In this document: positions 110 through 40,659 of the stretch, piece by piece
Numbering within the stretch: the stretch's first letter is position 1
How the letters are laid out: each line of letters starts with the position of its first letter
DNA from: Candidatus Bathyarchaeota archaeon
Lineage (GTDB): Archaea; Thermoproteota; Bathyarchaeia; 40CM-2-53-6
DNA: 64,000 nt
Assembly: GCA_005888635.1 (NCBI GenBank)
Contig: VBAW01000019.1
Location: forward strand, 18,776-82,775
Direction: 5' to 3'
The notes under the pieces: generated by a model
Databases searched by the model: none
The model's input: the letters and a program-made list of their open reading frames with translations, nothing else
Told to the model about the DNA's origin: nothing
Position numbers and translations under genes: made by a program

Positions 110-2128
110 GTGCCAACGGCTCGTACAGGCTCGACCTCGTGTTTACAGCCAACGTTGTCTTGCTGGGCGGAGTGGTTGAGACGACTTTCTCGACAACGTT
201 ACATAGTAACTTCACCTTATCCGGCTTCTAAATCCCAGATCCTAGTGGTCCGATTGATTTCTACACCCGCCACGAAACTGGCCAGTGGAACAGTTACCAG
301 CCCGTCCAATCCGAGTCATCGGCCACTGGACATTGACACACTGTACCACACACGTGCGATACTCAGCGTGCAATGGTCTGTAGACGGCGAACATCTCTAC
401 TTCGACACGAACATAACAGGCCGCTACAACATCTGGGCAGTCCCTAGCAACCGCGGCTGGCCCGTACAACTAACAGTAAGCGACGAGAGAACCCTTCTTC
501 AGGAGCCATCTCCAGACGGTCGGTTTCTCCTTTACGCGCAGGATATTCAGGGGGACGAGAAGCCGAACTTCTACCTCTTGGATCTTACAGAATTCACGAT
601 CCGCAACATCACAAACACTGACAAGGTAGGATACCGGGACGCGAAGTGGTCGCCTGATGGAAGATCGCTCGTTTTCGCCGGAGAGCGTGATGGTCCGGGC
701 ACATATCCCGTTTTTCACTTTGACCCGGACAAGGGAACGATCAAGAAGATAATCGGACACGAGGCTGGCGACTGCGAGTCTCTCGAGTACAGCCCGGACG
801 GTCGCAAGCTCGCGCTGACAAGAACCCGGAACTATCAGTATACAGGTGCAAGCGTCTACGATTTTGAGACGGGGAACGAGACAATGCTTGCCCCGATTGA
901 CGACAAGTCAACCACGATAACCGGAGGCTGGACCCGAGATGGTAAACGGGTCTACGTTACTAGCAACGCAAACGATCGGGGAATAGACGCTGTCGCTCTG
1001 CTAGAACTGAAGCAGGGACCCGAGTTTCAATGGCTGACCTTGCAAGACTGGGACAGCCAACTAGTGGACGTGTCCCCGACGGAAGACAGGTTCGCCTACA
1101 TCGTGAACGAGGCAGGGAACCTGAGACTCCTCCTTCGAAATCTCAATGGGGAGGAAGAAGAGATTCCGCCAACACAGGGAGTTGTCCGTGCCGCGAGATT
1201 CTCGCCGGACGGGAAGCGCCTCGCGATTATCCACGCGTTAGGCGATAGTCCACACGACATCTGGGTCTATGACCTCAAAGCTCGAACCTTGAAACAGATC
1301 ACTGACTCCCTGGTCGGTGGTCTTCACCGGGAGAATTTCGTCAACCCCCAGCTCGTCGTCTATCCATCTTTTGACCAGACGCCTATTGCCAGTTTCCTAT
1401 ACGTCCCGGCCAACATCAAAGCCGATCACTCCCATCCGGCCATCGTCCTCTCCCATGGGGGCCCCCAGTGGGAACACTTCAACAGCTGGTTTCCCAACAT
1501 TCAATATTACACAAGCCACGGCTACCTGGTCATCGCGCCCAACTTCCGCGGGTCGACCGGCTTCGGGCGCGAATTCACCGAGTCGCTTAGAAAGGATGCC
1601 GGCGGAGGAGACCTCAAAGACCTGGTCGCAGCTGTCGACTACCTCAAGACTACCGGCTACGTTGATCCCAACCGGATCGCGATTACCGGCGGCTCGTGGG
1701 GAGGATACCTGACACTAATGGCGTTGACAAAATACCCGGACATATGGGCCGCGGGAGTAAGCATTGTCCCGCTCGCCAACTGGTTCACAGCCCACGAGAA
1801 CGAAGACCCTGTTCTGCAAAAGAATGACGAATGGCTGATGGGTGATCCTGTCGCGGACCGCGACCTCTGGCAGGACCGTTCACCCTTATTTTTCGCTAAT
1901 AGGATCCGCGCTCCGCTTCTACTCTTAGCAGGACAGAATGATATTCGCTGTCCGGTTAAGGAGACTGAGCAGATGGCTGAAGCGGCGAGAAAGAATGGGG
2001 TGACAGTTGACGTCAAGATTTACGAGAATGAGGGCCACGGGTTCGTGCGGCGGGAAAACGAGATCGATGCGATCAAGAGAGCGGCGAAGTTCCTAGAAAC
2101 TCACGTGGGCCAGCGGTCAGCGAAATGA
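110..2128 (+). CDS. S9 family serine peptidase (prolyl oligopeptidase / acylaminoacyl-peptidase-like); N-terminal beta-propeller, C-terminal alpha/beta hydrolase
   Basis: 672-aa ORF. The C-terminal half has the GGSWGG nucleophile elbow (GxSxGG), a downstream Asp and a HGF motif, as expected for the S9 catalytic triad. The N-terminal half has TolB-like repeats. The true start is probably an internal Met downstream of 110. Confidence 0.8.
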   Translation: MPTARTGSTSCLQPTLSCWAEWLRRLSRQRYIVTSPYPASKSQILVVRLISTPATKLASGTVTSPSNPSHRPLDIDTLYHTRAILSVQWSVDGEHLYFDTNITGRYNIWAVPSNRGWPVQLTVSDERTLLQEPSPDGRFLLYAQDIQGDEKPNFYLLDLTEFTIRNITNTDKVGYRDAKWSPDGRSLVFAGERDGPGTYPVFHFDPDKGTIKKIIGHEAGDCESLEYSPDGRKLALTRTRNYQYTGASVYDFETGNETMLAPIDDKSTTITGGWTRDGKRVYVTSNANDRGIDAVALLELKQGPEFQWLTLQDWDSQLVDVSPTEDRFAYIVNEAGNLRLLLRNLNGEEEEIPPTQGVVRAARFSPDGKRLAIIHALGDSPHDIWVYDLKARTLKQITDSLVGGLHRENFVNPQLVVYPSFDQTPIASFLYVPANIKADHSHPAIVLSHGGPQWEHFNSWFPNIQYYTSHGYLVIAPNFRGSTGFGREFTESLRKDAGGGDLKDLVAAVDYLKTTGYVDPNRIAITGGSWGGYLTLMALTKYPDIWAAGVSIVPLANWFTAHENEDPVLQKNDEWLMGDPVADRDLWQDRSPLFFANRIRAPLLLLAGQNDIRCPVKETEQMAEAARKNGVTVDVKIYENEGHGFVRRENEIDAIKRAAKFLETHVGQRSAK

Positions 2129-7876: not shown

Positions 7877-9406
7877 TTACTGAGATGGCGGGGTCTGACC
7901 AGTTCTTCTTCTCAGCAGATAAATGGCAGCTCCGGCTACAGCGATGATAGCGACGGCTACGCCGATGAATACGGTTAGCGGAAGGGTGCCAGTTCCCGAT
8001 GTGATAGATCCTACGGTTACCTCGACGGTTGTGGAATGGGTCAAGGTCCCGTTGGTCACGGTCACGGTGACCGGGTAGCTGCCCGTTGCCGTTGGATAGG
8101 TTCCTCCCGGAACTGACACCGTCATGTTTGATGTCACAATTCCTCCTGATGCTAGAGTGACTGATGCGGGGCTGAATGTTACGGTCGGCCCAGGTTGAGA
8201 AACGGTTCCCGTGAGCGTTAGTGTGCCTTTGAATCCGCTGAGACTTGTAAGGGTGATTGTTGTGGTTGCTGTAGAGCCTTGAGCTATGCTCAAGGAGGGA
8301 AGGCTGGCCTTTATGTTAAAGTCTGGGATGGTGACAGTAATGTTGACTGTTGTCATGTTTGCAGTTGAACCGCTCGTACCGTTGATTGTGGCAGTGTAGA
8401 ATCCGGGTGGAGTTGTAGAAGTTGATACAGTCATTGTCGATGTTCCGCTTCCTCCTGACGAGATAGTGACGGAAGCTGGGTTGAAAGAAAGGCTCAGCGC
8501 TGCTTGAGAGACTCTTGAGGTTAGCGTGATTGTGCCGGAGAATCCGTTGAGACTTGTCAGAGTTATCGTGCTGCTGTTAGAGGATACGCCTTGAATCACG
8601 CTGAGTGAGGCGGGACTAGAGGTTATGCTGAAGTGGGGAACAGTGATTGTTACCAAGACTGTTGTCGTGTTTGTGGTCGAGCCGCTCGCACCGTTGACTG
8701 TCACAGTATAGGTCCCACCGGGCGTTGAGGCGCTCGTGGAGACGATTACTGTGGATGTTGCGGGTGATCCGGGGGAAACGCTAACGCTTGTCGGCATCAT
8801 AGATGCGGTGGGTCCCGTGGGCGAGACGGATGCGCCAAGATTGATTGTTCCAGTGAACCCATGCTCGCTGCTGAGGGATATGGTTGAAGCGCTTGATGAG
8901 CCCTGTAAGATGGTGAGCGAGGATGGATTTGGTGCCATCGAGAAGCCGGGTGGTTGAACAATGAACATTCCCTTCATGCTCCCTGGGTGGACCGTGCAGT
9001 AGTAGGTGAAACTTCCGTCCGTGCTAGCCTTGAATGTGACCGTTCCTCCTGTCGTGGTTACGCCAGTGCAAGGGTCCGCGGACGGCGAACAATCTGACAC
9101 ATCGGTACCGTCTTTGTCAACATCAAGTAGAAATTGATGATACACGCCGGAGTCCCCGTTTGACCAGACGATTGTTACAGTGTCTCCCTGCTCAACGGCT
9201 ATTGTCGGGTTGGGATTTGTTGTTCCGTTCCAGCCCGAAGCGTAGTATGCTACCAGATGGATCGTCACGGTTGAGGCGTGCGCAGTTTGAAATATTGTGC
9301 CGGGAGGAAGGAGGAGTATGGCGACTGCAAGAATGAACGTGGCCGAGGCGGCCTGCAGTAGGTGTGCGCGCTTCGTCAAGACGAAGCTTCTACATTCATA
9401 GTACAT
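7877..9406 (-). CDS. Cell-surface protein: N-terminal type-1 copper (cupredoxin) domain, three Ig-like repeats, C-terminal TM anchor
   Basis: YYCTVHPGSMKGMFIV is a Cys-His-Met blue-copper ligand loop. There are three ~90-aa repeats (NGFSGTITLTS / SGFKGTLTLTG / HGFTGTINLGAS). The C-terminal hydrophobic helix is followed by RRRTG. Confidence 0.7.
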   Translation of the reverse strand: MYYECRSFVLTKRAHLLQAASATFILAVAILLLPPGTIFQTAHASTVTIHLVAYYASGWNGTTNPNPTIAVEQGDTVTIVWSNGDSGVYHQFLLDVDKDGTDVSDCSPSADPCTGVTTTGGTVTFKASTDGSFTYYCTVHPGSMKGMFIVQPPGFSMAPNPSSLTILQGSSSASTISLSSEHGFTGTINLGASVSPTGPTASMMPTSVSVSPGSPATSTVIVSTSASTPGGTYTVTVNGASGSTTNTTTVLVTITVPHFSITSSPASLSVIQGVSSNSSTITLTSLNGFSGTITLTSRVSQAALSLSFNPASVTISSGGSGTSTMTVSTSTTPPGFYTATINGTSGSTANMTTVNITVTIPDFNIKASLPSLSIAQGSTATTTITLTSLSGFKGTLTLTGTVSQPGPTVTFSPASVTLASGGIVTSNMTVSVPGGTYPTATGSYPVTVTVTNGTLTHSTTVEVTVGSITSGTGTLPLTVFIGVAVAIIAVAGAAIYLLRRRTGQTPPSQ

Positions 9407-17355: not shown

Positions 17356-17401
17356 CCAGCAGTTTCGTCCTCGTATCTGAACAACCTCACGCGAGTCATC
17401 T

Positions 17402-17935
17402 CTATTCTTTCTTCAATTGCCCCAAACGTGCTTCATAGTATGCTGCTTTGGCTGCTCGATGAGCCACTCGGTTCTGACTTCTTGGAATCTTCCTCATCTC
17501 AATGAACCGGAAACCGTTCATTAGCGCCTTCGCTTTCTTGTACCATGGGAGCAGTTCACGACCGACTTTCCATACGTCTTTCAATTGGTTGTGGAGGATT
17601 AGGCTGTGTCTGTGTAGACAACGACCTTGTCTTGATCCCGGCTTGTCTCAGACCGTGAAGTAGCTCAATTTTCTTCCGAATCCTCTTCTCCGTGGATGTT
17701 GAACGCAAGAGGGGGCCGAAGTCCTCTTTTGTCGAGACCTTGTGCAAGCAGCTGTAAAGAATTTTCCAAAACTGCGAGGTTCCAGAGTTCCTAGAAACTG
17801 GCGACGAAACCAACGTGTTCTCGCCGTTAGCCAGACAATAGACAACCTCACGAATTTCCCGTGATAGGGACTATCCGTAGCCTCCCAATCGACGAAGTCT
17901 TTCTGGCTCGTGTAAGCATGGGACTCTGCTAGCAA
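17402..17935 (-). pseudogene. Frameshifted type-1 RNase H-like gene remnant
   Basis: Three overlapping minus-strand ORFs lie in different frames. The last ends IPRSQNRVAHRAAKAAYYEAR, resembling the C-terminus of archaeal RNase HI (VPREENKEADRLSRVAYE). Confidence 0.4.
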
Positions 17936-18044
17936 GACGACCCTTACGGTTTCAGGCTTCCAAACTGCCTAAGCCGAGAGACTTCCTCAGCAACCTCGAA
18001 CGAATCAATATCAAGATCCGGATCGATCCTACGTACCCATTCAT

Positions 18045-18245
18045 AGCACTCTCTGAGGTTCATTTCTCTGGCAGACCAGACCGCCATGCGGTTCCTAATC
18101 AGCACTTTCGATCTCGTGTCTGAGCAATAGCCGAAAGCTAGCTCAACCCTACAGATGTCGGGTCAGCGGAGCGACTGGCGCGAACGACTACACGCGAACC
18201 CCTCACGGATGGAACAGGAATTAGCAATCAAACTACAAGAAAACC
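18045..18245 (-). repeat. Island repeat copy G (reverse orientation); its ATG plus 22 conserved codons head ORF 18155..18391
   Basis: The reverse complement matches CTTGTAGTTTGATTGC...GTTCCAT(T/C)CGTGAGGGGTT(G/C)GCGTGTAGTCGTTCGCGCCAGTCGCTCCGCTGACCCGACATCTGTAGGGTTGAGC...CACGAGA. Confidence 0.8.
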
Positions 18246-18735
18246 GAATAAACGTACTTGTATCGGACCATCGTTCTGCCTGCTACTCTTTGGTCTGGTC
18301 GCGAGTGGTAGAGAGACCTGGGGACCCTTTTGCCAGCTTGGATTTGGCGGTGCTGGGCTCGGCCCATGTTGTGTCTAGGCTTAGCTGTTGAGGTCGCGTA
18401 ACATCTGATGTTGTTGGTTCTGGTTGGACCCATGTGAGGTTCTTGCGAACTGTTGGCGTGGGTAGTCCTGGTCTCGCGTCGTTGACTCCTTTGTCTGGTG
18501 GAGGTAGTGGTCCTTCTCGGGTCTTGTTTTTTGTCATTCTCTCACCTCGTTCCCGTTTCTCCCAATGACGATCTTCCGGAGAGGGTCTCTTGCTTGGGCT
18601 TGGTTCCTTCATGCCATTGTTGTAGCCAGCAGCGTGTTTCTTCTTCAGTCGGCAGCTGGTCCGGACGGAGAACTGCTAGAAAGGTTATCTCAATCTGTGG
18701 GATCGAGTCTCAAACGCTAGGTCGAGAGTGCACAA

Positions 18736-21504
18736 ATGGACCTCATTTGGTTGGTCCTCGGACTGGTTCTCGCAGTGATCCTAGCTATCGTGGTTCTAGT
18801 TGTTCTTCCATGGTATCGGAAGCACGGCATCGAGCAGGCCAGAGCTTCGTTGAAAGAGGTCCCTTCGATTATCGCTAGAATCGACAATTCCTTGCAGCCC
18901 TACTTGTCCTCGAAGGAGTACCTTCCCGAGCGGGTTGGTAGACCTCTGAGGTCAGAGATCCAGACACTCGCTGAGTTGACCTTGCCGGTTCTCGGGAAAA
19001 GTGTCCGGAGAGCCCATGATGTTGCAATGAGAAAGGATTTCGAGTCGATGACGGCCGCTGCCAATCAGTTGTGTCAAAGGCTTGCGGGGAACAACTACCA
19101 GTATGTCCAGCGAGCGATCTCTGAGCACTCGAAGTTGCTTGTCGATGAGCTGAAGCTCGACGCGGCTCAGCGAGAGGCGACCGTTCGAGACGATGAGCGC
19201 AATCTTGTCGTTGCGGCGGCCGGTTCGGGCAAGACGCGCACGTTAATCGCTAGGGTCCGTTATCTCTTGGAACGTGGCTCCGCTCCAACTAACATTCTGG
19301 CGATAACCTTCACGAACAAAGCGACCGAGGAGATGAAGGACCGCCTCAAACAGATGAGTGTACCAGTCGCGGATCAGGGAAGCGATGGTGTGACTGTCTC
19401 GACACTTCATGCTCTCGGCAAGCGCGAAGTCCAAGCCGCCACTCCAGGACCGCTTAGTATTGCTGACGAGCATTGGACAAACTCCCTTGTCGCTAGCGCG
19501 TTGCGTGATGCCAGGGAAGGTCGAGATCGGCAGCTTTCGAGTTTGTATGTCAATGCGATTCTGAACTTCCATCGTGATCTGGACGAGCGGACCCCAGCTC
19601 TCGGTGCGGACCTTACCTACAGAACTCGTCGTGGAGAACAAGTTCGGTTCATCGGCGAGCGAATCATCGCGGACTTTCTACTCACCCACCAGGTTCCTTA
19701 CAAGTACGAAGCCACAGCCTCATGGGCACAAGTCGGCTCAGGTCGCTCCGCCTATCACCCCGATTTCACACTCCTTGACACTGGAGCTTGCGTCGAATAT
19801 TGGGGGATAGACCGTGGAGGCAATGTGGCCGGGAATTGGTCAACTTCCTCTGCAGATTATGGCAAGGGAATGGCATGGAAAAGAGGAGAGTTCAACCGCA
19901 CTGGCAAGAAGCTCATCGAATTCTACGATTACGAGCGCAGAGAAGGAACTCTGGAGGCATTACTCGAAACACGCTTGACCGGTGCCGGCGTACAATTACG
20001 ACCGATGACACTAGCCGGGTTAGAAAAGATCCTCGGGGATACAAAGTACATCGGCAGCGTGATCGAGAGACAATTGGCAGGATTCATTGAAAATGCTCGT
20101 TCATTCCGAATGTCGACTGACCAGATTCTCCAGCGTCTAATATCGGCAACGCCACGCGTTCATCATTTCGGGAACCTTGGTCTTGCAGTTTTGCAAAGAT
20201 ACAAGAGGGAATTGGCCTCGGAAGGGAGAGTCGATTTCTCGGACATGCTTCACCGGGCCGCTGACATCGTAGAGAAAGGTGCGAGTTCACTCCCAAAGTT
20301 TGATCATGTCCTTGTCGACGAGTTCCAAGACACCTCGACGGCTATGGCCCGCCTTGTGAATGCACTTGTTCGAACAAACCATGCTCATCTCTTCGCCGTG
20401 GGTGATGACTGGCAAGCCATCTACGGTTTTGCAGGCGGAGACGTAGATCATGTTGTCAACTTCGAGTCTCACTTCGGACCCGCCTCACGGACAATGCTCG
20501 ACACAAACTACAGATCCCCGGCCACAATCGTCGAGGCGGGTGCAGCGTTAATTGCTCACAACCCCGGCCAAATACCAAAACAGGTTGTCATCTCTAGCCC
20601 TGAGCGTGGCGAAGCCTTCATTCACGAAGTCCCTGATGACGATTTAGCGATCATAAACAAGGCGATTCAGCTAGTCAACGAGGAACGTAAGCGAGTTGAT
20701 CCCGACGAAATCTTGGTTCTCAGCCGGACCAACCACCTGGTCAAGGGGATAAGCGATGGATGCCAGCAGAATGGGATTCCAGTGGCCTACCCTGATCGCA
20801 ACGTTTCCGGAGTCCGCATACTATCTGCTCATAAGGCGAAAGGCCTAGAAGCGAATGTCGTGGTCATCGCAAACGCTAGCGACCATCTGTTCGGCTTTCC
20901 TTCGAAGATGGAGAACTCGGATGTTCTTGAACCAGTACGGATGAGTGCTGGAAACGCTCCGGCTGAGGAACGACGACTGTTCTACGTAGCAGTCACTAGG
21001 GCTAGGAAGCGGCTACACCTGATCTCTCGACAGGGTCACCCGTCACCTTACATCGCAGAGATCGAAGGAGCTTCTCAACAATCGCAGACTGCCAGCCGGG
21101 GGTCATTTCGTCCAGGCGTTCGTTTCAACGACGCTTTCTACGTTGAACAAGTCTATCGCCTCACTGATCGACAAGCAAAGGCGCGCATTCACCAATGCGG
21201 CCTCTTGACAACACCGAACGGCCGCTTTTCTTTTACGTCATGGCTGCCATTCTATCTTGACCAGGGAAGGACCTATTCGCTGACAGGGGTTCTCTATGAT
21301 CGGCCCTATCAAAACCGGCATCAGGTTACGCTTGACAGGGCGACTCATGTCGAACGACAAGCGATCCAGTCACAAGCCAGCCAACCTATAGGCGTGCGCC
21401 AACTACGTCCACGCCCTCCTCCTCAGTTCCAGCCCCGCTTGATGGTACCAAACAATCCGCTCGTGAAAACATCGGATTCGTTGATCGCGAAGCCTGTTCG
21501 ATGA
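18736..21504 (+). CDS. Membrane-anchored UvrD/PcrA-like SF1 helicase with an internal PD-(D/E)xK nuclease-like insertion
   Basis: An N-terminal TM helix is followed by Walker A AAAGSGKTRT, motif II VLVDEFQDTS, motif III GDDWQAIYGFAGG, motif IV NYRS and motif VI YVAVTRARKRLHL. The insertion between motifs I and II contains ERIIADFLL...YKYE...YHPDFTLLDTGACVEYWG, a Vsr/DUF559-like pattern. Confidence 0.85.
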   Translation: MDLIWLVLGLVLAVILAIVVLVVLPWYRKHGIEQARASLKEVPSIIARIDNSLQPYLSSKEYLPERVGRPLRSEIQTLAELTLPVLGKSVRRAHDVAMRKDFESMTAAANQLCQRLAGNNYQYVQRAISEHSKLLVDELKLDAAQREATVRDDERNLVVAAAGSGKTRTLIARVRYLLERGSAPTNILAITFTNKATEEMKDRLKQMSVPVADQGSDGVTVSTLHALGKREVQAATPGPLSIADEHWTNSLVASALRDAREGRDRQLSSLYVNAILNFHRDLDERTPALGADLTYRTRRGEQVRFIGERIIADFLLTHQVPYKYEATASWAQVGSGRSAYHPDFTLLDTGACVEYWGIDRGGNVAGNWSTSSADYGKGMAWKRGEFNRTGKKLIEFYDYERREGTLEALLETRLTGAGVQLRPMTLAGLEKILGDTKYIGSVIERQLAGFIENARSFRMSTDQILQRLISATPRVHHFGNLGLAVLQRYKRELASEGRVDFSDMLHRAADIVEKGASSLPKFDHVLVDEFQDTSTAMARLVNALVRTNHAHLFAVGDDWQAIYGFAGGDVDHVVNFESHFGPASRTMLDTNYRSPATIVEAGAALIAHNPGQIPKQVVISSPERGEAFIHEVPDDDLAIINKAIQLVNEERKRVDPDEILVLSRTNHLVKGISDGCQQNGIPVAYPDRNVSGVRILSAHKAKGLEANVVVIANASDHLFGFPSKMENSDVLEPVRMSAGNAPAEERRLFYVAVTRARKRLHLISRQGHPSPYIAEIEGASQQSQTASRGSFRPGVRFNDAFYVEQVYRLTDRQAKARIHQCGLLTTPNGRFSFTSWLPFYLDQGRTYSLTGVLYDRPYQNRHQVTLDRATHVERQAIQSQASQPIGVRQLRPRPPPQFQPRLMVPNNPLVKTSDSLIAKPVR

Positions 21505-21697: not shown

Positions 21698-22723
21698 GTG
21701 CTGAAGCCTCTCCTCTTACTATGTGGCGGCTACGTAGCCTCACTTCTAGTCATGACCACAGCACCTGTCTTCCTAGATGGTGCTACTGCGTCACTGGTCA
21801 GCATCGGACCCTTGCTTTTTGATGTGGTCTTAGCGGCCTATTTGGTAGTTCACTACCTCGGCTTGAGGGGCCTCTTTCGGCTAGCAGCGTATTTCTTTAC
21901 GTTCCTCGGCCTCGTCAGCATCCCATCAGGAATACTCAGTCCCGTAGGACCCGGCCAAAGCTACCCGTCTAATGTAACAAGCTACGTCAACCCGTTCACA
22001 AACAACTCGACTATTTCCTGGATCAACAACTTCGACACTCCCTGCGTTCTAGTCCACGGTCAAACCTCTACCAGCCAGTCCACGGGCTACTATGGACTCG
22101 GTTATGGAGGAACCAGTACGCGACTAGGTAGTAACTGCCACGGCCTTGCCCAGCTAACAGCACAAGCATATTCAAGCGGGCTCGGTTCCAAGGCGACAGT
22201 TCAGTCCAGCGTCTGGTTCATAGACCAACCGTTCTATGTGCCCGATCATGGACAGAAAACCACCAGGTTAGAGATTGGAGGATCCGTATTCATCAGTGGA
22301 TGGCTCGCCCGCCAGAACGCCGGCATAGGCACGTACAACGGCGGGACAACACTTGAGATAATGTTGAAGCTCATGGGAAACGCTCCCTGCGATAGCTATG
22401 GCTGCTACAACTCCTATGCGACCAGGTATTTTACAGGAACCCAGTCAATGTCTTCCGAGTATGACCTTCCGCATCTGGGCATCTACGTGACTCCTAGTTA
22501 CACCTACAACGTCATCGTTAGCTTCAACGTAACCTCCAACACTATCGGAATAGGCGCAGGTGGAATAGCCACTTCCGACGCCTGTTTCGGCTACAGCAAC
22601 TACTGCGCCGCAACTCCAACCAATGTCCCGGGTTTCCCAGCCTCGTGCATGCCAAATCCATCCCGGTTCCAATCCTGCGAATTGCTCCTAACTGCCGTAG
22701 CTTACACCCTTACGGATTTCTAA
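21698..22723 (+). CDS. Membrane-anchored extracellular Ser/Thr/Gly- and Cys-rich protein
   Basis: 341 aa with 3 N-terminal hydrophobic helices, then a low-complexity Cys-containing ectodomain. Confidence 0.45.
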   Translation: MLKPLLLLCGGYVASLLVMTTAPVFLDGATASLVSIGPLLFDVVLAAYLVVHYLGLRGLFRLAAYFFTFLGLVSIPSGILSPVGPGQSYPSNVTSYVNPFTNNSTISWINNFDTPCVLVHGQTSTSQSTGYYGLGYGGTSTRLGSNCHGLAQLTAQAYSSGLGSKATVQSSVWFIDQPFYVPDHGQKTTRLEIGGSVFISGWLARQNAGIGTYNGGTTLEIMLKLMGNAPCDSYGCYNSYATRYFTGTQSMSSEYDLPHLGIYVTPSYTYNVIVSFNVTSNTIGIGAGGIATSDACFGYSNYCAATPTNVPGFPASCMPNPSRFQSCELLLTAVAYTLTDF

Positions 22724-23267
22724 GGTGCCCGGCAATCCCCGCATCTCTGCCTGCGGAGATCGAGTTCTGTTCTCGCGATGTAATCTCAGCCAGTACTCCT
22801 GTGATTCGGGCTCCTCTTCCTGATAAGTCGTAATTGACTGAGACACCGTTTGGAAAAAGGACGACGAGAGCGTTTCTATGGAAGACGGTCTGGTTTGCCT
22901 ATTCTCGGGATCTATAGTTCTTGTTCCATCCGTGTCCAGCCTCGAAGGAGCAGCGGTGAGGAACCAGATGCCTAGACGAATGGAGAAGCCATCCTCAAAA
23001 CTGTTGCCAGAAGAGGGCAAGTCTCAGTGGGTGAAATGCTGGAAGTGTGGGGCGTGGATTCATTGCAGGAAATGCTTGACACATCACCTTTACAACACCC
23101 CTCACAAGTAGTGAGGATAAGCGCGGGGCAGCGTCCCTGATGGCGCCAAGGAAATCGCCTAGAAGTCAGCCTAGGGGGCATTAGAACTCGCGAGGATCCA
23201 CTGCATCAAGACAACGATCCTCCCGGCTCAAGTTCAATGTGAAATTCGACCATGGCGAATTATATGG

Positions 23268-23330
23268 GGTCGATAGTGTTCGTGATGTTCAAGTTGTGAA
23301 CAACCTACCACAAGCAACGCTAGGCTAGGC
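23268..23330. repeat. ~60 bp near-palindromic motif, second copy at 40838..40898
   Basis: ATAGTGTTCGTGATGTTCAAGTTGTGAACAACCTACCACAAGCAACGCTAGGCTAGGCG is about 85 percent identical to the 40838 copy, which contains GTTGTTAACAAT. Confidence 0.5.
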
Positions 23331-23432
23331 GCTCCCTTAGCGAGACCTGTTGATCCTATTAGAACGAAAACAGCTGCGTTTCTGGGAGATTCTCGAGGAC
23401 CCTAAGGTTCTGGGATATGACCGCTGTGGAGA

Positions 23433-25913
23433 CTAACTGGTTCTGCGGACCCCACAGTTCGGACAGAAGAGCCCAGTTAGAGGAACCGCCGAGCCGCAGT
23501 GAGTACATGGGACTGAGTTGCCACCGAGTGGCCATCTCTGGGAAGATGCCAATGGCGGATTATTCCGCGGTCTTTGCGCCTGTCGGATAAGCAGAAGAGT
23601 AGCTGCAAGGGTCACGAGGGCAACCGCGAGGAATACGGGACCGTACTCCTTGACCAAGATCATGACTTGGCCCGCTAGTGTTGAGATGAGTTGAGAGCTT
23701 GGTCCAGACCCTGGCTCAGGGCTTGGGTTCGGGTTTGCTGAGATTGAGACTTGGAACTGGGCAACGATATTGCTACCGGCCTCCCATATTATGGGATAGG
23801 GATACTGGTATTGCCACTCCACAGTCTCGGTCAGCATGTGTATTCCCGCCCCGACTGACCGGGGAATCGTAAACGCCAGTGTCAAAGTGATATTGCTTCC
23901 CGCACCAATTAGCGGCGCGTCGGGTAGGTTGCAGAGGCTGTTGCCAAGCTGCGCGGTCGGAGTATTTCCGGGGCACTCGCTATCATCCATGAGCGTGAAC
24001 GTTCCAAAATCAGTCGTCACTCTAACCAGGATTATTCTGGAGGGAAGGGCGCCCACGTTTGTGAAATTGTTCACGAACACCGCGGATCCTCCGGCCTGAG
24101 CGGCTTCGGGGCCGAGGATATCATACAACATCGCGGCTGAGGGAACATTGGCTGTTACAGTTTCGGTGGCCTGCATGCGGCTGGTTGTCCCGATAATTGT
24201 AATCGTATAGGATGATGTGGGGGTAGTCTTTGTCGCCACAAATATCGCGTTAACACTAACACTCTTGCCACTCCCGACGGCGACAGGGTTCTGGTTGAAT
24301 ACGACAGTTGGAATCTGGTTTGGCCACGTCGGCGAGGATGGTGCTACCGTCGCGTTGAGCTCTACGCTGCTATCGAAACCGTTCAGGCTGGACAATGTGA
24401 CGGTGAAGGTGCCGTTAGTCGTTCGGGGAACAGTAAGGGACCCAGGACTGGCGGCTATGCTAAAATCTCGCAGCCCAGCACTACCCTTCGGCACCACCAT
24501 AACATCAGTGAAGAGACTGTCGGCCCTGCAACAGGTGTACGCCTCGGCACTAAACCTCACGTCTACGGTCTGGCCTGCAAGACCGGAAATATCGTAGACC
24601 TTCATCTCCGGAAGATTCCCCGTACACCCTCCCGTGCTGTTGACAATCGGCACAGGGACGAAAGTATCGGACAGCGCCCCGATTCCATTGCCTGTAACAG
24701 TAACCGTGGCTGACTCTGACCCGCTCGTTATCTGTCCCCATGTAAGGAATGCGAGTACGCCGCCAGCTTGAGGGACGGTGAAGCTCTCATCGGCGTATCC
24801 AGAAGTGCCTAGAGTGTTCCAGATATCGAGAAACGATGATCCCTGAAGAGCGCCGGGCGTACAAGGCCCGGTACTCGTGGTCACCTGGATGATCGGATAG
24901 TTGCCGTTATACTGGACTCCGTAGATAGTGCCTGTCGTCCAGTATGCGAGTCCGTTGCTGAAGTCCCCGTTCTGGATCGCGTTAACAGCTTCCTGAGCAA
25001 GAATGTTCATCGAAACGGTTAGAGTGTGTGAAATGTGGCCAGCGGTCGCGATGATCGTGGCATTATAGCTCCCCGGAGGGATCGCGGCCAACGACAATAG
25101 GTTGAGAATGGAGAGAGCTGTGCCGTTGATCTGAAGGTTGACGATTGGAGCGCTGAACCATCCAGAGATCGCGTATGAGGAGGATCTTACGGTAAGAGAT
25201 ATGGTCCCGAAGAATCCTGTGTCGCCAGTGAGACTGATGTTGAAGTTTGCAATCATCCCTCTGGGCAACGTCACAGAGGTCGAGTTGGATCTAATCGTAA
25301 AGTCTGACCCGGACGGTAGGAGATTACTGAAGCTGGCGGTCTGAACCGTCGCCGTGGGACCGTTCAGGTTAACACATATTCCGTTGAGAACGCTCGTGCT
25401 TGAACAGCCCGAGGGGAAGGTGATTGGAGTGTTCGCCCCTGTCCCTGTAACGTTGTACGTGGCGGTGAAAAGAATTCCATTTGTGGGCGCTATGGTTGGG
25501 TAGTATCCGTACCCGTCGACGGTAACAACTCCCGGCCCGTCCACTGATCCACAGTTAGCTCCCGCCCCATTGATGCATTGCCAGCCGCCCACAGGGTAAC
25601 CACTCGATGCGCTCATTACGCTCTGAGCCAAACTCGCGTTCACGGGATAGAGGACGGAGGCATTGGTCTTGACCGATATTGTGAACTGCTGGAAAGACCC
25701 GACGGATTGTGCAACGACGTAGACTGTTAGAAAGGATCCCTGCTGTCCCGTGAGAGTTGAAGGTGTGGTGGGACAATAATCAGCAAGCGATATGCAGACC
25801 ATTGGCGCAAGATTTCCGCGAGCAGGAGTTGGAGCTACCCTGACAATGAATACCACGGTGAGAATCAGGATTGCAGCAGCGACATTCGCGAAGTGTCGGC
25901 GAGAACTAGTCAT
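23433..25913 (-). CDS. Large cell-surface protein with C-terminal TM helix and cytoplasmic zinc ribbon
   Basis: 826 aa with a signal peptide and Thr/Ser-rich beta-rich repeats. The C-terminal TM helix is followed by CTHCGSAVPLTGLFCPNCG. Confidence 0.6.
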   Translation of the reverse strand: MTSSRRHFANVAAAILILTVVFIVRVAPTPARGNLAPMVCISLADYCPTTPSTLTGQQGSFLTVYVVAQSVGSFQQFTISVKTNASVLYPVNASLAQSVMSASSGYPVGGWQCINGAGANCGSVDGPGVVTVDGYGYYPTIAPTNGILFTATYNVTGTGANTPITFPSGCSSTSVLNGICVNLNGPTATVQTASFSNLLPSGSDFTIRSNSTSVTLPRGMIANFNISLTGDTGFFGTISLTVRSSSYAISGWFSAPIVNLQINGTALSILNLLSLAAIPPGSYNATIIATAGHISHTLTVSMNILAQEAVNAIQNGDFSNGLAYWTTGTIYGVQYNGNYPIIQVTTSTGPCTPGALQGSSFLDIWNTLGTSGYADESFTVPQAGGVLAFLTWGQITSGSESATVTVTGNGIGALSDTFVPVPIVNSTGGCTGNLPEMKVYDISGLAGQTVDVRFSAEAYTCCRADSLFTDVMVVPKGSAGLRDFSIAASPGSLTVPRTTNGTFTVTLSSLNGFDSSVELNATVAPSSPTWPNQIPTVVFNQNPVAVGSGKSVSVNAIFVATKTTPTSSYTITIIGTTSRMQATETVTANVPSAAMLYDILGPEAAQAGGSAVFVNNFTNVGALPSRIILVRVTTDFGTFTLMDDSECPGNTPTAQLGNSLCNLPDAPLIGAGSNITLTLAFTIPRSVGAGIHMLTETVEWQYQYPYPIIWEAGSNIVAQFQVSISANPNPSPEPGSGPSSQLISTLAGQVMILVKEYGPVFLAVALVTLAATLLLIRQAQRPRNNPPLASSQRWPLGGNSVPCTHCGSAVPLTGLFCPNCGVRRTS

Positions 25914-26483: not shown

Positions 26484-26549
26484 CCGTCTCCTTTTCGACC
26501 AAGAACTCCTAGCGCCAGAGGTTAATGAGAGTAAGAGGCGTGTCTTCGC

Positions 26550-26675
26550 CTGTAGTTTGATTGCGAGCTCTTGTCCATCCGTGACGGGTTGGCGTGTAGT
26601 CGTTCGCGCCCGTCGCTCCGCTGACCCGAAATCAGTTACTTTCAGCTGTCTCTCGGCTACCGACCGGTGTTATCT
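26550..26675 (+). repeat. Island repeat copy A
   Basis: CTGTAGTTTGATTGCGAG...GGGTTGGCGTGTAGTCGTTCGCGCCCGTCGCTCCGCTGACCCGAAATC...CAGCTGTCTCTCGGC. Confidence 0.8.
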
Positions 26676-27460: not shown

Positions 27461-27799
27461 TCAAAGGTTTTCAAGTAGGTCTTGGTATAACTGGTCTCTT
27501 TTCTTGTCCGAGTAGCTGTCGTATTGTAGTTCTAAGATTCTGTATCCTCTCTTCCGTAAGAGCAAGCGTAGTTCTTCGTTTTTCGCCATCTGCGCTGTTC
27601 CATGATGGACCTGGCCGTCGACAAACACGAGTAACGGTCTAGATTCTAGCGGGAAGTAGAGGTCGGCTGTGGTTACAAGTATCTCTGCCTGTGTCAGGTA
27701 TCTTATCTGGTCGTCTTGTAGTCTGATTGTTATTTCCTGTTCCATTCGTGAAGGGTTGGCGTATACGCGTTCGCGCCAGTCGCTCCGCTGACCCGACAT
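27461..27799 (-). CDS. DUF559 / Vsr-like PD-(D/E)xK endonuclease-domain protein; its 5' end and upstream region are the island repeat
   Basis: 112 aa. The N-terminal MSGQRSDWRERVYANPSRMEQEITIRL matches the R...T.AE..LW helix of DUF559. LLVFVDGQVHH...D..R...L...GYRILEL matches the LIIELDGGQH...GxxVLRF core. Confidence 0.6.
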   Translation of the reverse strand: MSGQRSDWRERVYANPSRMEQEITIRLQDDQIRYLTQAEILVTTADLYFPLESRPLLVFVDGQVHHGTAQMAKNEELRLLLRKRGYRILELQYDSYSDKKRDQLYQDLLENL

Positions 27800-27925
27800 C
27801 TGTCGCTATCAGCTGTCTCTCGGCCCATTTCTCAGACACGAGAACGAAACAGGTGAGAAAAAGGCCGAACGTTTAGCCGCCAACTTACTTTTGCTAGACT
27901 CTCCAGACCAAGAGGACTCGGCAAT
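27733..27925 (+). repeat. Island repeat copy B; it contains the start of DUF559 gene 27461..27799 on the opposite strand
   Basis: Core CGTTCGCGCCAGTCGCTCCGCTGACCCGACATCTG plus downstream CAGCTGTCTCTCGGCCCATTTCTCAGACACGAGAACGAAAC...CTCTCCAGACCAAGAG. Confidence 0.85.
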
Positions 27926-28439: not shown

Positions 28440-28682
28440 ATGCGGCGCTCGATCTTTGGGCCGGAACAGATGGCGCGTAGAGCCGATTCGATACAACTGC
28501 CTAAGGAGCTCGTTGCGGACCTGCTAGAGTCATCTCTAAGGTTCCAGGAGGTCGCTGAATCCTTAGAGGTTCAGCTGGACAAGAAGACCGTCAAGAGGCT
28601 CAAGATTGGAGGCAAGGAGCTAAAGAAGCGCCAGTACAAGGTAGCTTCCAGCCGAGAAGATATCGACCGGATTCTCAGTTGA
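28440..28682 (+). CDS. Putative antitoxin (partner of RelE/ParE toxin)
   Basis: 80-aa ORF whose stop overlaps the toxin start (ATGA). Confidence 0.5.
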   Translation: MRRSIFGPEQMARRADSIQLPKELVADLLESSLRFQEVAESLEVQLDKKTVKRLKIGGKELKKRQYKVASSREDIDRILS

Positions 28683-28933
28683 GATACGAGGCAGTCTTCC
28701 TAAACACTTTTCTGAAACAGTTCAAGAAGCTCCCTGGCAACGTCAAGCAACGAGTCAAGCAGAGGATCCAAGAGCTCGCGACGAACCCCTACATGGGTCT
28801 GAGGCTCAAGGGAGGCCTTGAGGGCTTCTGGAAAGACCGTGTAGGCGCGTATAGGATCCTGTACAAGATTGACAGTGGAGCGGGAAGAATAATCTTCTAT
28901 GATGTCGATCTCAGAAAGCGAGTCTATGATTGA
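28679..28933 (+). CDS. RelE/ParE family toxin
   Basis: 84 aa. KQFKKLPGNVKQRVKQRIQELATNP...YRILYKIDSGAGRIIFYDVDLRKRVY is the typical RelE/ParE fold signature. Confidence 0.75.
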   Translation: MRYEAVFLNTFLKQFKKLPGNVKQRVKQRIQELATNPYMGLRLKGGLEGFWKDRVGAYRILYKIDSGAGRIIFYDVDLRKRVYD

Positions 28934-28967
28934 AGAACCAAGATGCGAGGGAAATTATTCGTTTCTG

Positions 28968-29160
28968 TAGTTAGATGCCTGGTTCTTGTTCCATTCGTGA
29001 GGGGTTGACGTTTAGGTGTTCGTGCCAGTGGGTCCGCTGACCCGACATCTGTAGGGTTGAGCGGTCTTTTGATTATTGCTTAGACACGAGAACGAAATTG
29101 CGCTCGTCAATCCATTTCGTTCATCATCAGCCAGCTCTCGCGACTACTAGCAACGTGTCA
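28968..29160 (+). repeat. Island repeat copy C
   Basis: CTTGTTCCATTCGTGAGGGGTTGACGTTTAGGTGTTCGTGCCAGTGGGTCCGCTGACCCGACATCTGTAGGGTTGAGC...CACGAGAACGAAA...CCATTTCGTTCATCATCAGCCAGCTCTC. Confidence 0.85.
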
Positions 29161-32494: not shown

Positions 32495-32597
32495 CAGACC
32501 CAGTCAAGGGAGCACTACGATCAACTCTTCAAGATCCGCAAGGAAGCGTGAGCCCGGAACGATAGGATAGTCACACGACTAGTCGCTATTTGGTCGT

Positions 32598-32880
32598 CTT
32601 GTAGTTTGATTGCGAGTTCTTGTTCCATTCGCGAGGGATTGGCGTGTAGGCGTTCGCGCCAGTCGCTCCGCTGACCCGACATCTCTCACTTTCAGCTGTC
32701 TCTCGGCCATTGCTCATACACGAGAACGAAACTGCTTTCGCCGATCCATTTCTTTCATTGTCGGCCAGCTCTCCAGACCAAGAGCAACTACAGGACAATC
32801 TGAGTCTCATGGAGGCTGCAAGACCTGCAGTGCAGAACTGGTCCGTAGTGGAAGAGGTCGTCAGCCTCCTCCTAAACATC
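32598..32880 (+). repeat. Island repeat copy D (long form, ~280 bp)
   Basis: TCTTGTAGTTTGATTGCGAG...CGTTCGCGCCAGTCGCTCCGCTGACCCGACATCT...CACGAGAACGAAACTG...GCCAGCTCTCCAGACCAAGAGCAAC...GGAGGCTGCAAGACCTGCAGTG. It is about 85 percent identical to copy E. Confidence 0.85.
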
Positions 32881-33655: not shown

Positions 33656-34095
33656 ACCTCGAAGAGTGCTTCCAGCGGCGACTTCTGAGGAGAGACAGAC
33701 CGGACACGGCGAAGGCTGAAAGATCGCTTCAAGTCTCAGCAGCAAAACTCGAACAAGCCGAGAGATCATACAGCCACCAGCTCTACGACGCATGTCTGGT
33801 CCTAGCATACACTTCGATGTTCCACGCCGCCCGAGCAGTACTCTTCAGAGACGGAATAATCGAGAAGAGCCACGTCTGCCTAGCCGAGTATTTACGACAA
33901 GAATACTCAAAGAAAGGTTTGATCAGCGAAGGATACATGAACAGTCTAGACAGAATGCGCACCGACAGGCACGAAGCCATCTACGGATTGGAGACGTCAG
34001 TCACAAAAACCCTGGCCGACCATGCGATCAACCAGTGCAGAGAATTCATCGGCGCCGCGAAGAAGCTAATCTCCAATGAGAGGACCCTAGCTTGA
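33652..34095 (+). CDS. HEPN domain protein (partner of MNT)
   Basis: The alpha-helical HEPN fold has an R-x5-H motif (RMRTDRHEAIY). Its stop abuts repeat copy E. Confidence 0.8.
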   Translation: MNLEECFQRRLLRRDRPDTAKAERSLQVSAAKLEQAERSYSHQLYDACLVLAYTSMFHAARAVLFRDGIIEKSHVCLAEYLRQEYSKKGLISEGYMNSLDRMRTDRHEAIYGLETSVTKTLADHAINQCREFIGAAKKLISNERTLA

Positions 34096-34370
34096 TTGCT
34101 ACTTGTTCCGTTCGTGAGGGGATCGGCGTGTAGTCGTTCGCGCCAGTCGCTCCGCCGACCCGACATCTGCCGGTTTCAGCTGTCTTCCGGCCATTCCTCG
34201 GACACGAGAACGAAACTGGCTTGGATGATCCAGTCGGTTCATTGTCAGCCAGCTCTCCAGACTAAGAGCAACAATGCTTCATCCGGGGAGCCATGGAGGC
34301 TGTAAGACCCGCAGTGAAGTACTGGTCCGTGATGGAAAGGGTCATCAGCCTCCTCCCTAGCTCTTGAAGA
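34093..34370 (+). repeat. Island repeat copy E (long form), followed by a 55-bp fragment duplicating the 3' end of the MNT gene
   Basis: This copy has the same architecture as copy D. After it, GTGATAATCGAAGGTACCGCTATAAGTGGACGCCTC (34385-34440) matches GTGATAATCGACGGCATCGCTATAAGCGGACCCCTG at 33601-33636. Confidence 0.85.
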
Positions 34371-40377: not shown

Positions 40378-40659
40378 CGAGACACCCGCTACCGCACTAA
40401 TGTATTCTTCATCCGAGCATATAAGTGCTCATTACAAACCTGTTCTAGCCCCCAGAGACCAGGACCGGGCAAAGGCCTCTGACATCTTCCCGGACCCAGC
40501 AGAAGCATGCACAGCGGACGTTTTTCCCCGCCGCTACGCGCTTCGAGAATTCTGCAAGCCTACGGGCGGACATTCTATTCCCAAATTGCCGCTTCGGTAC
40601 CAGCCTAAGTCATTGCAAACATCTGGACTTGCGTGAGATGTCTAATTTGATCATGTTCT

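Follow-up and report, generated by a model that had tools for sequence, protein, structure and literature searches.

A helicase IV-like UvrD-type helicase with a nuclease-fold insert in subdomain 1B from a Candidatus Bathyarchaeota genome, possibly a membrane-tethered helicase-nuclease

Helicase-nuclease fusions play key roles in DNA repair, with RecBCD, AddAB, Dna2 and Hef as examples, and many anti-phage systems likewise depend on them. Here, we ask whether a gene of Candidatus Bathyarchaeota archaeon encodes another such fusion, and what its product might do. The gene lies in a stretch of 64,000 nucleotides of contig VBAW01000019.1 (hereafter the window), whose open reading frame listing places it at exactly 18736..21504 on the plus strand, with an ATG start and a product of 922 aa. 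This product is identical to the NCBI entry 'hypothetical protein E6H12_03115 [Candidatus Bathyarchaeota archaeon]'. No annotation of the helicase and insert architecture was found in public records, which say only 'UvrD-helicase domain-containing' or 'hypothetical', and no published description of a UvrD-type helicase with an inserted nuclease-like domain was found in the literature searched. Our analysis strongly supports a protein composed of a predicted N-terminal transmembrane helix, a cytoplasmic SF1A motor, a restriction-endonuclease-fold insert in subdomain 1B and a C-terminal OB-like barrel (Table 1).

Table 1. Features of the helicase gene, with positions in the window.
Feature	Residues	Position	Strand	Basis
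Complete gene, helicase IV-like SF1A helicase with inserted nuclease-fold domain	922 aa	18736..21504	+	ORF list, Pfam, NCBIfam
Predicted N-terminal transmembrane anchor, then WYRKHG	~2-26	18739..18813	+	Kyte-Doolittle
N-terminal all-helical region, three long helices	27-138	18814..19149	+	AF2 helices 2-58, 65-93, 96-130, pLDDT 79-96
Subdomain 1A, first half: Q motif, Walker A AAAGSGKT (161-168), motif Ia	140-236	19153..19443	+	Alignment to PcrA 12-97, E. coli HelD 173-287
Subdomain 1B, N-terminal helices and low-confidence linker	237-293	19444..19614	+	AF2 helices 245-261, 265-276
Inserted restriction-endonuclease-fold domain	~294-420	19615..19995	+	AF2 model
Codon TTC, substitution private to the window's copy	F305	19648..19650	+	
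Insert codon	E308	19657-19659	+	
Insert codon	D343	19762-19764	+	
Insert codon	E354	19795-19797	+	
Insert codon	W356	19801-19803	+	
Subdomain 1B, C-terminal helices leading back to 1A	421-520	19996..20295	+	AF2 helices 426-495
Remaining motor: motif II VDEFQD (527-532), III GDDWQAIYGF (556-565), NYRS (591-594), V, VI VAVTRAR (751-757)	521-778	20296..21069	+	HelD alignment, Pfam UvrD_C
C-terminal beta-barrel, probably an RPA-like OB-fold ssDNA-binding domain	~795-890	21118..21405	+	AF2, profile A4, NCBIfam
Conserved proline-rich tail motif R-x-L-R-P-R-P-P-P-x-x-Q-P	888-900	21397..21435	+	Alignment A4: R, L, P, P columns invariant

The helicase motifs quoted in a preliminary description of this DNA all occur in the translation, at the positions listed in Table 1. 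Chance occurrence of these motifs is excluded, because Pfam matched UvrD-helicase with E=2.7e-49 (168.7 bits; cut-off 23) and UvrD_C with E=9.5e-24 (84.9 bits; cut-off 25.6). Motifs Q, I, Ia, II, III, IV, V and VI are present, and the motif residues are invariant in an alignment of 44 sequences (A2). PcrA, UvrD and Rep were the best PDB matches. Classification as an SF1A motor of the UvrD/Rep type, with all ATPase and helicase motifs intact, is strongly supported.

Judged by sequence, the closest relative of the window helicase is DNA helicase IV (HelD), to which it is not orthologous. E. coli HelD (b0962; NF008276) was the best-scoring NCBIfam family with 277.9 bits, but its cut-off of 543 was not reached. 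The two proteins share 34% identity over query residues 485-773, which cover motifs II-VI with few gaps, and 35% over motifs Q-Ia, and they have the motif III signature GDDWQAIY in common. From residue 481 onward the protein aligns with PcrA from residue 172 and with HelD from residue 395, and the region corresponding to PcrA 2B appears to be short, as in helicase IV. In contrast, the nuclease-fold insert of ~140 aa, the transmembrane anchor and the C-terminal OB domain are all missing from E. coli HelD. Nor was a helicase IV-type N-terminal domain recognized in the window protein, as the BLASTP alignment with HelD begins only at query residue 119. Orthology with HelD was rejected because of this missing domain and the score below the equivalog cut-off.

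Weak NCBIfam matches to HelD_BACSU (55 bits) and HelR (25.6 bits), together with Foldseek matches to HelD-RNA polymerase structures, could point to a factor that recycles RNA polymerase, like HelD of Gram-positive bacteria. We consider this very improbable. With cut-offs of 419 and 750 bits, the scores fall far short, for which reason a Gram-positive HelD/HelR assignment was rejected, and the structures of PcrA and UvrD ranked well above HelD in Foldseek. Moreover, Pfam did not match the HelD-type N-terminal domain, and the transmembrane anchor, nuclease-like domain and OB domain would indicate DNA substrates.

The preliminary description reported an insertion of about 330 aa between motifs I and II. 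This figure represents the whole distance between the two motifs (360 residues), most of which is ordinary 1A and 1B, whereas the folded extra domain measures only about 130-140 aa (residues ~294-420). The extra material amounts to about 141 aa in comparison with E. coli HelD (query 236-485 versus HelD 287-395), and to about 175 aa in comparison with PcrA. In the AlphaFold2 model, pLDDT drops to ~68 in the 1B linker just before the insert (residues 281-300), and the insert itself folds as a restriction-endonuclease-like domain with a pLDDT of 89. It has the alpha-beta-beta-beta-alpha-beta core of the PD-(D/E)xK fold, which calls for an acidic residue in helix 1, an aspartate at the start of strand 2 and a glutamate or aspartate in strand 3. 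Apart from the lysine of the motif, the model bears out the PD-(D/E)xK-like nuclease fold that had been proposed from the strings ERIIADFLL (308-316), YKYE (322-325) and YHPDFTLLDTGACVEYWG (340-357), all of which are present in the translation. The preliminary description had allowed that the insertion might be nothing but a canonical 1B/2B without a nuclease fold. Part of the 360 residues is indeed ordinary 1A/1B, but the predicted fold and the profile match to T7 endonuclease I refute the idea of a merely enlarged 1B/2B, which we regard as practically excluded.

In sequence, the insert is most closely related to phage T7 endonuclease I (gp3; PF05367; PDB 1m0d, 2pfj, 3cae). This enzyme, a junction resolvase, forms a free-standing domain-swapped dimer, and its residue K67 is essential. 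A profile of the insert alignment matched T7 endonuclease I chains with E=2e-4 to 1e-2. PF05367 (Phage_endo_I) was matched by 18 of the 46 aligned insert relatives (best E=4.1e-5), and any other family by two at most. The insert of the window itself had no PF05367 match at E<=1 and reached no Pfam threshold, and there is no Pfam model for the domain. The aligned motifs are an S-x-x-E helix, a Y-E-Y-E strand, Y-x-P-D-F and E-x-x-G, such that E308, D343 and E354 correspond to E20, D55 and E65 of T7 endonuclease I. When the insert, the N-terminal segment and the C-terminal segment were scanned individually with Pfam, NCBIfam and PADLOC, no family was assigned to the window's own segments.

The Vsr/DUF559-like core that was first suggested holds in terms of structure, since the insert resembles members of the Vsr/DUF559/I-Bth0305I clade (1cw0, 3hrl, 3r3p; 'EDxHD' motif as defined in PMC3239194), but not in terms of sequence, where Phage_endo_I is nearest. 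None of the Pfam families Vsr, DUF559 and DUF2726 matched the window insert or its 46 relatives, and the insert lacks Vsr residues His64/His69 and the zinc-site motif F-T-H-G-C-F-W-H. RAP domains, which are non-nucleolytic Vsr-like folds, were also among the top structural matches. A further suggestion, that a repeat-associated small ORF (27461-27799) belongs to the same superfamily, found no backing: hhalign gave a probability of 0.5% against the insert profile, and the ORF had no Pfam match even at E<=5 and no meaningful PDB sequence match. That suggestion rests only on a motif pattern visible by eye.

Does the insert have an active site? Among 246 insert sequences, whose identity to the window's domain is only about 30%, E308 (245/246), D343 (245/246), E354 (246/246) and Y375 (246/246) are near-invariant, and their retention at such low identity argues that a metal site is in use. 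The D/E/K triad of the preliminary description, in contrast, is absent. The lysine position of the ExK motif is occupied by W356, and throughout the 246 sequences this position holds W (171) or F (65), rarely L, Y, H or C, and never K. Because the canonical lysine (K67 in T7 endonuclease I) is thus replaced across the insert family, nuclease activity is not assured. The strand-3 motif reads E-[HY]-[WF]-G, and five residues further on there is no conserved His. Conserved K382/R383 and Y375 are candidates to stand in for the missing lysine.

The loss of the lysine might mean that the insert is a catalytically dead nuclease fold with a role in binding DNA or junctions, or in regulation, so that the protein would be a helicase only. 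RAP domains, noted above among the structural matches, bind nucleic acid without cleaving it, and so do some TnsA-like domains. However, dead nuclease domains normally lose their catalytic acidic residues, whereas the three acidic residues of the insert are retained, and possible replacements of the lysine are conserved. Vsr itself speaks for both sides: it places intercalating aromatic residues beside its site, but active enzymes of its clade can do without the lysine (PMC3239194). On balance, we consider a dead domain distinctly unlikely. One feature of the window's copy was counted against an active helicase-nuclease, namely the substitution of the near-invariant Ser305 by Phe. Residue 305 is Ser in 241 of the 246 family members, and also in the near-identical proteins P0002 and P0003. 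In the profile alignment, the consensus Ser305 falls opposite the Ser of 'RSGLE' in T7 endonuclease I.

The N-terminal transmembrane helix noted earlier was predicted again by Kyte-Doolittle hydropathy, with a 19-residue mean of 3.6 at residues 6-24 compared to <=1.6 elsewhere in the protein. A similar hydrophobic segment was found in 80 of 106 close relatives and in 25 of 131 distant insert-bearing representatives. In the AlphaFold2 model, residues 2-58 form one long helix. The flank YRKH follows the predicted transmembrane segment and hence, by the positive-inside rule, the helicase body would be cytoplasmic. The ~110 aa behind the anchor, described before as of no recognized fold, indeed had no Pfam match, Helicase_IV_N included, and no Pfam family scored better than E=0.08 for residues 1-138.

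At the other end of the protein, the model shows an all-beta domain (796-890) with six or seven strands, and a poorly modelled tail (pLDDT <50 at 876-884 and 906-922). A profile of this domain (A4) matched PDB 2kbn/2ken (E=2.9e-6), which is deposited as 'conserved protein' and which we take to be an archaeal RPA-related OB domain. Weak NCBIfam matches at residues 813-881 to archaeal replication factor A/SSB models (E=0.0015-0.025) remained far below their cut-offs. Model and profiles suggest that the barrel is probably an RPA-like OB fold binding ssDNA. The preliminary description had made no mention of this domain.

Several known systems likewise combine a helicase and a nuclease. AddA, RecB and AdnB join a UvrD-like SF1A motor, matched here by NCBIfam and Foldseek, and a restriction-endonuclease-fold nuclease in one chain. 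Their nuclease is C-terminal, of the RecB/Cas4 type and with the canonical lysine, and the enzymes work in multi-subunit complexes. Unlike these enzymes, the window protein has its nuclease fold in 1B, from another clade, and no partner gene. An AddA/RecB type was rejected, because there was no PDDEXK_1 match and the C-terminus is an OB-like barrel instead. PADLOC gave no specific match. Its top matches were models of Gabija GajB (197 bits), which do not cover the insert and arise because the UvrD core is shared; Gabija was rejected as generic core similarity, with no GajA-like gene (ATPase-TOPRIM nuclease) adjoining. Hhe is similar in concept. Its motor is an Upf1-like SF1B motor with DUF4011/DUF3320, and its nuclease is C-terminal. 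According to Gao et al. 2020, Hhe reportedly unites a helicase and a Vsr-like nuclease in a single protein. It was absent among the best 25 PADLOC matches of the window helicase.

The architecture had been called unusual, but the insert is not rare: about 1,400 protein clusters (at 50% identity), mostly bacterial, contain it, almost always within UvrD-type helicases. Carriers include Vibrio and Pseudomonas plasmids and haloarchaeal megaplasmids; in total 51 plasmids bear the domain, as do 21 of the 80 IMG/VR loci that were kept from a scan with the full-length alignment. The close family of the window's helicase occurs in soil archaea; the neighbour-joining tree is without support values and only suggestive. 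In E. coli, a homologue with the insert (for example WP_001557761.1) was present in 40 of the 5426 complete genomes (0.7%), and in the one genome examined it is flanked by a type I RM system and an integrase and sits next to a type I Zorya system. A downstream ORF of 272 aa overlaps the E. coli island gene. All-against-all ORF clustering of 83 loci revealed no conserved neighbour gene; apart from generic ABC-F ATPases, which turned up in 12 loci at no fixed distance, and a small number of integrases, nothing recurred. The contexts of relatives vary, with RM, DndB, NTase-HEPN and PIN-MazE genes among the neighbours. This lack of a conserved neighbour, the varied contexts, the plasmids and viral contigs, and the patchy presence in E. 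coli suggest that the gene behaves as a stand-alone accessory gene.

The window itself shows no defence genes next to the helicase. The preliminary description located the gene in a defence or TA island, but it does not lie in an obvious defence island, and some 7 kb separate it from the closest TA pair (ParE). The helicase gene is surrounded by genes for mini-RNase III, Hsp20, an AsnC-like protein and surface proteins. Related archaeal contigs are partly syntenic around the gene (L084 with L088, and L082 with L087), a pattern that fits stable inheritance on the chromosome better than it fits a mobile defence gene. The suggested function against mobile elements remains plausible and receives some support from relatives next to RM and Dnd genes and from the Zorya/RM island of E. 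coli, but not from the genes adjoining it in the window.

With due reservation, the reading that we favour is a single-chain, membrane-tethered helicase-nuclease, perhaps aimed at incoming DNA or mobile elements. As in its relatives, the motor would move 3'->5' along single-stranded DNA. Since 1B touches the duplex at the fork in PcrA/UvrD structures, a domain inserted in 1B would lie at the ss/ds junction. There, the conserved E-D-E metal site may cleave the junction or the displaced strand, or at any rate hold on to it, while the OB domain may retain the ssDNA product. Tethering to the membrane would limit this activity to the cell periphery, and our best guess at the target is DNA on its way into the cell, be it viral, plasmid or transforming DNA, with a dangerous nuclease kept off the chromosome. 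The protein apparently acts alone, with no dedicated partner gene. A bolder version, in which the whole family is a widespread, unrecognized single-gene immune system of bacteria and archaea that destroys incoming DNA at the envelope with a lysine-less site confined by its tether, seems rather unlikely to us.

Alternatively, the protein might serve housekeeping repair or recombination, as a helicase with a junction module that handles stalled forks, flaps and Holliday junctions of its own chromosome. Archaeal Hef, a helicase plus nuclease, and E. coli HelD in the RecF pathway offer functional analogues. Such a role would suit the kinship with helicase IV, the junction-resolving relative of the insert, the predicted ssDNA-binding OB domain, the partial synteny of archaeal contigs and the ordinary neighbours in the window. 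However, one would not readily expect a membrane anchor on a protein that repairs the chromosome, E. coli strains with the homologue also retain core helD, and the spread is that of an accessory gene (0.7% of E. coli, an integrase-bounded island in the one examined, plasmids and proviral contigs). We regard this role as a serious possibility, albeit a somewhat unlikely one.

In either case the construction differs from that of the known fusions, with a nuclease fold inside 1B of a UvrD-type helicase, an aromatic residue consistently in place of the catalytic lysine, and a predicted membrane anchor in a sizeable fraction of the members. If the nuclease is inactive, the protein would still clearly exemplify a nuclease fold repurposed for DNA sensing within a motor. 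An active one would provide a new compact helicase-nuclease for mechanistic work, an example of bacterial-type SF1 helicases gained by soil archaea, and a candidate defence gene testable in E. coli. In two E. coli strains, the homologue was disrupted by an IS.

The helicase gene starts with ATG and encodes a protein of 922 aa. Its translation contains all sequence strings quoted in the preliminary description and is identical to a deposited protein (P0001) named 'hypothetical protein E6H12_03115 [Candidatus Bathyarchaeota archaeon]'. Pfam UvrD-helicase matched residues 142-580 (E=2.7e-49), in a match broken by a large gap, and UvrD_C matched at E=9.5e-24, which excludes a chance match. Among the NCBIfam models, DNA helicase IV (NF008276) scored highest with 278 bits, followed by PcrA (198 bits), UvrD (182-190 bits) and Rep (154 bits), and every score was far below the respective equivalog cut-off. 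A Foldseek search with the whole model retrieved PcrA, UvrD, Rep, AddA, AdnB, RecB and HelD, as expected. The motor is helicase IV-like, and its SF1A core is intact. With a score far below the helicase IV cut-off the protein is not classified as HelD itself, and it also failed the membership tests for GajB, AddA/RecB and Gram-positive HelD.

In an alignment with HelD of Escherichia coli MG1655, residues 119-236 and 485-773 corresponded to HelD residues 173-287 and 395-670, which leaves about 141 residues of the helicase without a counterpart. Aligned with PcrA, residues 229 and 481 corresponded to PcrA residues 97 and 172, giving about 175 extra residues. According to the published PcrA domain boundaries, the insertion lies inside subdomain 1B. 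The initially proposed insertion of about 330 aa equals the full distance from motif I to motif II, of which the extra module accounts for about 130-140 aa.

The window copy of the insert matched no Pfam model, Pfam has none for the domain, and database protein names are uninformative. Using residues 280-460 as query against 1.84 billion representative proteins, we obtained 1,411 matches at E<=1e-3, of which 367 reached E<=1e-10; the matched proteins range from about 100 to 1,750 aa in length. All four full-length examples that were scanned carried the insert inside a UvrD-type helicase, together with variable extra domains (e.g. HhH, protein kinase). A few of the matched proteins are short (148-253 aa) and may represent either fragments or copies that stand alone. 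We aligned 46 diverse copies that share 29-62% identity with the window copy. Their consensus was S-x-x-E-x-x-I-A-[DN]-F-L / Y-x-Y-E / Y-x-P-D-F-x-L / I-E-[HY]-[WF]-G / W-K-R, and E308, D343, F344, E354 and Y375 were invariant. AlphaFold2 predicted from this alignment a confident alpha-beta-beta-beta-alpha-beta topology (mean pLDDT 89, pTM 0.77). The corresponding profile matched the T7 endonuclease I chains 3cae, 2pfj and 1m0d (E=2e-4 to 6e-4), with E308, D343 and E354 falling on the T7 core E...PDF...E-T-K-G. Scanned singly, 18 of the 46 copies matched Pfam Phage_endo_I (best E=4.1e-5), and every other Pfam family was matched by at most two. From the topology, the profile match and the Phage_endo_I matches, we conclude that the insert is a restriction-endonuclease-fold domain; the model and the profile search thus contradict a reading as canonical 1B/2B subdomain only. 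By structure it is nearest to the Vsr clade and by sequence to T7 endonuclease I. For the 'VSR, DUF559, DUF2726' group of the PD-(D/E)xK superfamily, Steczkiewicz et al. 2012 (PMC3424549) list the structures 1cw0, 3hrl and 3r3p. Hence, the suggested Vsr/DUF559-like core holds for fold and structure, but not for sequence.

Conservation of the site was assessed in 246 copies. E308 and D343 were each present in 245 copies, and E354 and Y375 in all. That these three acidic residues stay invariant although sequences are only about 30% identical speaks for a functional metal site; catalysis itself is putative. Where the (D/E)-x-K motif would have its lysine, these 246 copies nearly always carry W or F and never K; at the adjoining position, most distant members have H and the close family has Y. 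Active enzymes of the same fold in the Vsr clade can be without the lysine and use other residues (PMC3239194). Judged by conservation, K382 (212/246) and R383 (229/246), both on the following helix, are candidates for the basic group. That the insert is instead dead and senses DNA seems unlikely; such a domain could serve an anti-mobile-element or a housekeeping helicase alike. Position 305 is Ser in 241 of the 246 sequences, including the near-identical database proteins P0002 and P0003, and the substitution S305F is private to the window copy; it could make this allele a weakened one, or be a minority variant that the assembly picked up.

The full-length AlphaFold2 model (44-sequence alignment, mean pLDDT 83.7) starts with a single long helix (residues 2-58) and two further ones (65-93 and 96-130). 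In agreement with the predicted N-terminal TM helix, residues 6-24 form a hydrophobic segment (Kyte-Doolittle mean 3.6), the sole such segment in the protein. With YRKH following, the segment has the pattern of a signal anchor, by which the helicase would remain cytoplasmic. Comparable segments occurred in 80 of 106 close relatives and in 25 of 131 distant insert-bearing representatives. A profile of the C-terminal region, which the preliminary description did not mention, matched PDB 2kbn/2ken (E=2.9e-6), which we take to be archaeal RPA-related OB domains, and residues 813-881 weakly matched NCBIfam replication factor A/SSB models. We read this domain as OB-like and ssDNA-binding. The strongly conserved motif R-x-L-R-P-R-P-P-P-x-x-Q-P, in a region modelled with low confidence, possibly acts as a docking peptide that binds a partner.

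More than 2,200 proteins were related to the helicase at E<=1e-10, and the best 120 of them (57-100% identical) share the full architecture. The close family is archaeal, since its contigs encode TBP, ribosomal protein L35Ae and LonB-type Lon. The nearest GTDB species representative is a Thermoplasmata MAG (59% identity); identity falls to 25-39% at the remaining 79 GTDB loci, of which only L036, of Bathyarchaeota RBG_13, is not bacterial. The insert is encoded at 71 of the 80 loci, e.g. in Aliivibrio fischeri ES114, Shewanella, Vibrio, Pseudoalteromonas, Franconibacter and Herpetosiphon. In a rough neighbour-joining tree without support values, the window clade adjoins a haloarchaeal plasmid protein within a bacteria-dominated radiation and the Bathyarchaeota RBG_13 sequence is placed elsewhere, a pattern that would fit transfers from bacteria to archaea on more than one occasion. 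The insert was found on 51 plasmids, among them haloarchaeal megaplasmids, always annotated just as 'UvrD-helicase domain-containing protein'. It was present at 21 of the 80 IMG/VR loci retained and almost absent from a curated phage collection. In E. coli, only 40 of 5,426 complete genomes carried a homologue, and its gene was IS-disrupted in two strains. We found no published description of this architecture in the literature searched, and rate the protein as a member of an already known kind, the helicase-nuclease fusions, in a version that is common in nature and unannotated.

The defence or toxin-antitoxin island proposed for the helicase was not obvious in the window. Upstream lie genes for an HTH_10 regulator, Hsp20, AHSA1-like and AsnC-like proteins and mini-RNase III; the genes downstream encode membrane and surface proteins, and the nearest toxin-antitoxin gene (ParE) is 7 kb away. 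Clustering the ORFs of 83 loci revealed no conserved neighbour gene, so the helicase appears to work without a partner protein. Loci of close relatives carry an RM system and ParB (L082), DndB with two methyltransferases and an NmeDI-type endonuclease (L086), NTase-HEPN (L085), PIN-MazE (L087), or a DEAD-box helicase alongside genes of ordinary metabolism (L084, L088). The homologue of E. coli SK1144 (1,010 aa, 30% identical over motor and insert) has a type I RM system on one side and a tyrosine integrase on the other, with type I Zorya next to it. The stop codon of its gene is overlapped, by 4 nt, by a hypothetical ORF of 272 aa without PADLOC match, an arrangement suggestive of an operon. 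In the helicase and its relatives, PADLOC recognised only generic GajB-like helicase similarity. Locus L082 also encodes a second, different UvrD-type helicase with a C-terminal PDDEXK_1 (AddA/RecB-like) nuclease, 6 kb upstream and adjoining genes for an N6_N4 methyltransferase, a BglII-type endonuclease and a ParB_N protein.

An intact SF1A motor, a nuclease fold with a conserved acidic triad in 1B, a probable OB-like C-terminal domain and a predicted TM anchor, with no dedicated partner gene, make up an architecture that is clear and testable; the function is a proposal. An anti-mobile-element role is the likeliest, if tentative, assignment; its main rival, housekeeping processing of forks or junctions, is less probable. 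In PcrA and UvrD complexes, 1B touches the duplex at the junction, and the insert would therefore be in position for cutting or gripping either the junction or the displaced strand. Judged from its relatives, the motor would translocate 3'->5' on ssDNA, while the OB domain would retain ssDNA and the tether would confine activity to the envelope. In its mode of action the whole protein would resemble AddA/RecB-type helicase-nucleases and defence helicases.

Positions of the helicase, its domains and other features (window coordinates unless indicated)
Feature	Position	Strand	Remark
Helicase ORF	18736-21504	+
Motor	residues about 140-778		AlphaFold2
Insert	residues 294-420		AlphaFold2; between 1B helices and low-confidence linker
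All-beta domain	residues 796-890		AlphaFold2; then low-confidence tail
S305F codon (TTC)	19648-19650
Proline-rich motif	21397-21435		residues 888-900
ORF-poor region	17400-18700
Dispersed repeat copies	18101-18250, 26537-26658, 27704-27825, 28953-29154, 32587-32788, 34084-34272, 40644-40845
78-aa ORF	18155-18391	+
112-aa ORF	27461-27799	-
Small ORF upstream of ParE	28440-28682	+	likely antitoxin
ParE-family toxin	28679-28933	+	Pfam ParE_toxin, E=1e-8
82-nt direct repeat	23250-23331, 40816-40897
Thr/Ser-rich protein	7877-9406	-	terminal hydrophobic segment
Thr/Ser-rich protein	21698-22723	+	terminal hydrophobic segment
Thr/Ser-rich protein	23433-25913	-	terminal hydrophobic segment
Second helicase, L082	1212-3950	-	ENA contig SC_Gr_Scaff1658737
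Homologue and 272-aa ORF, L091	11445-15292		E. coli SK1144 chromosome, NZ_AP018784.2

The window contains seven copies of a dispersed repeat of about 120-190 nt. Its core spans the start and first ~25 codons of a small ORF ('MSGQRSDWRER.YANPSRMEQE'). The intact 112-aa ORF shows by eye S-x-x-E / ADLYF / FVDGQVHHG, reminiscent of DUF559; it had no Pfam match and no detectable profile link to the insert, so that the shared superfamily claimed for the two was not supported. The copy directly upstream of the helicase, in opposite orientation to the rest, lies about 345 nt before its start and on the same strand; it opens the 78-aa ORF, which follows the other copies for ~35 residues, then diverges, and has probably decayed. 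Apart from this ORF, the 1.3 kb from the mini-RNase III gene to the helicase contained short overlapping ORFs only (<=126 aa), and no convincing gene was identified there. The ParE toxin gene lies among the repeat copies and overlaps the small ORF upstream. Separate from this family, the two copies of an 82-nt direct repeat are 77% identical and 17.5 kb apart, one of them directly downstream of the largest of the Thr/Ser-rich protein genes that flank the helicase. These proteins, with N- or C-terminal hydrophobic segments, are probably of surface or S-layer type; the 826-aa one has a C-terminal TM segment and a zinc-ribbon (weak DZR/Zn_Ribbon_1 matches).
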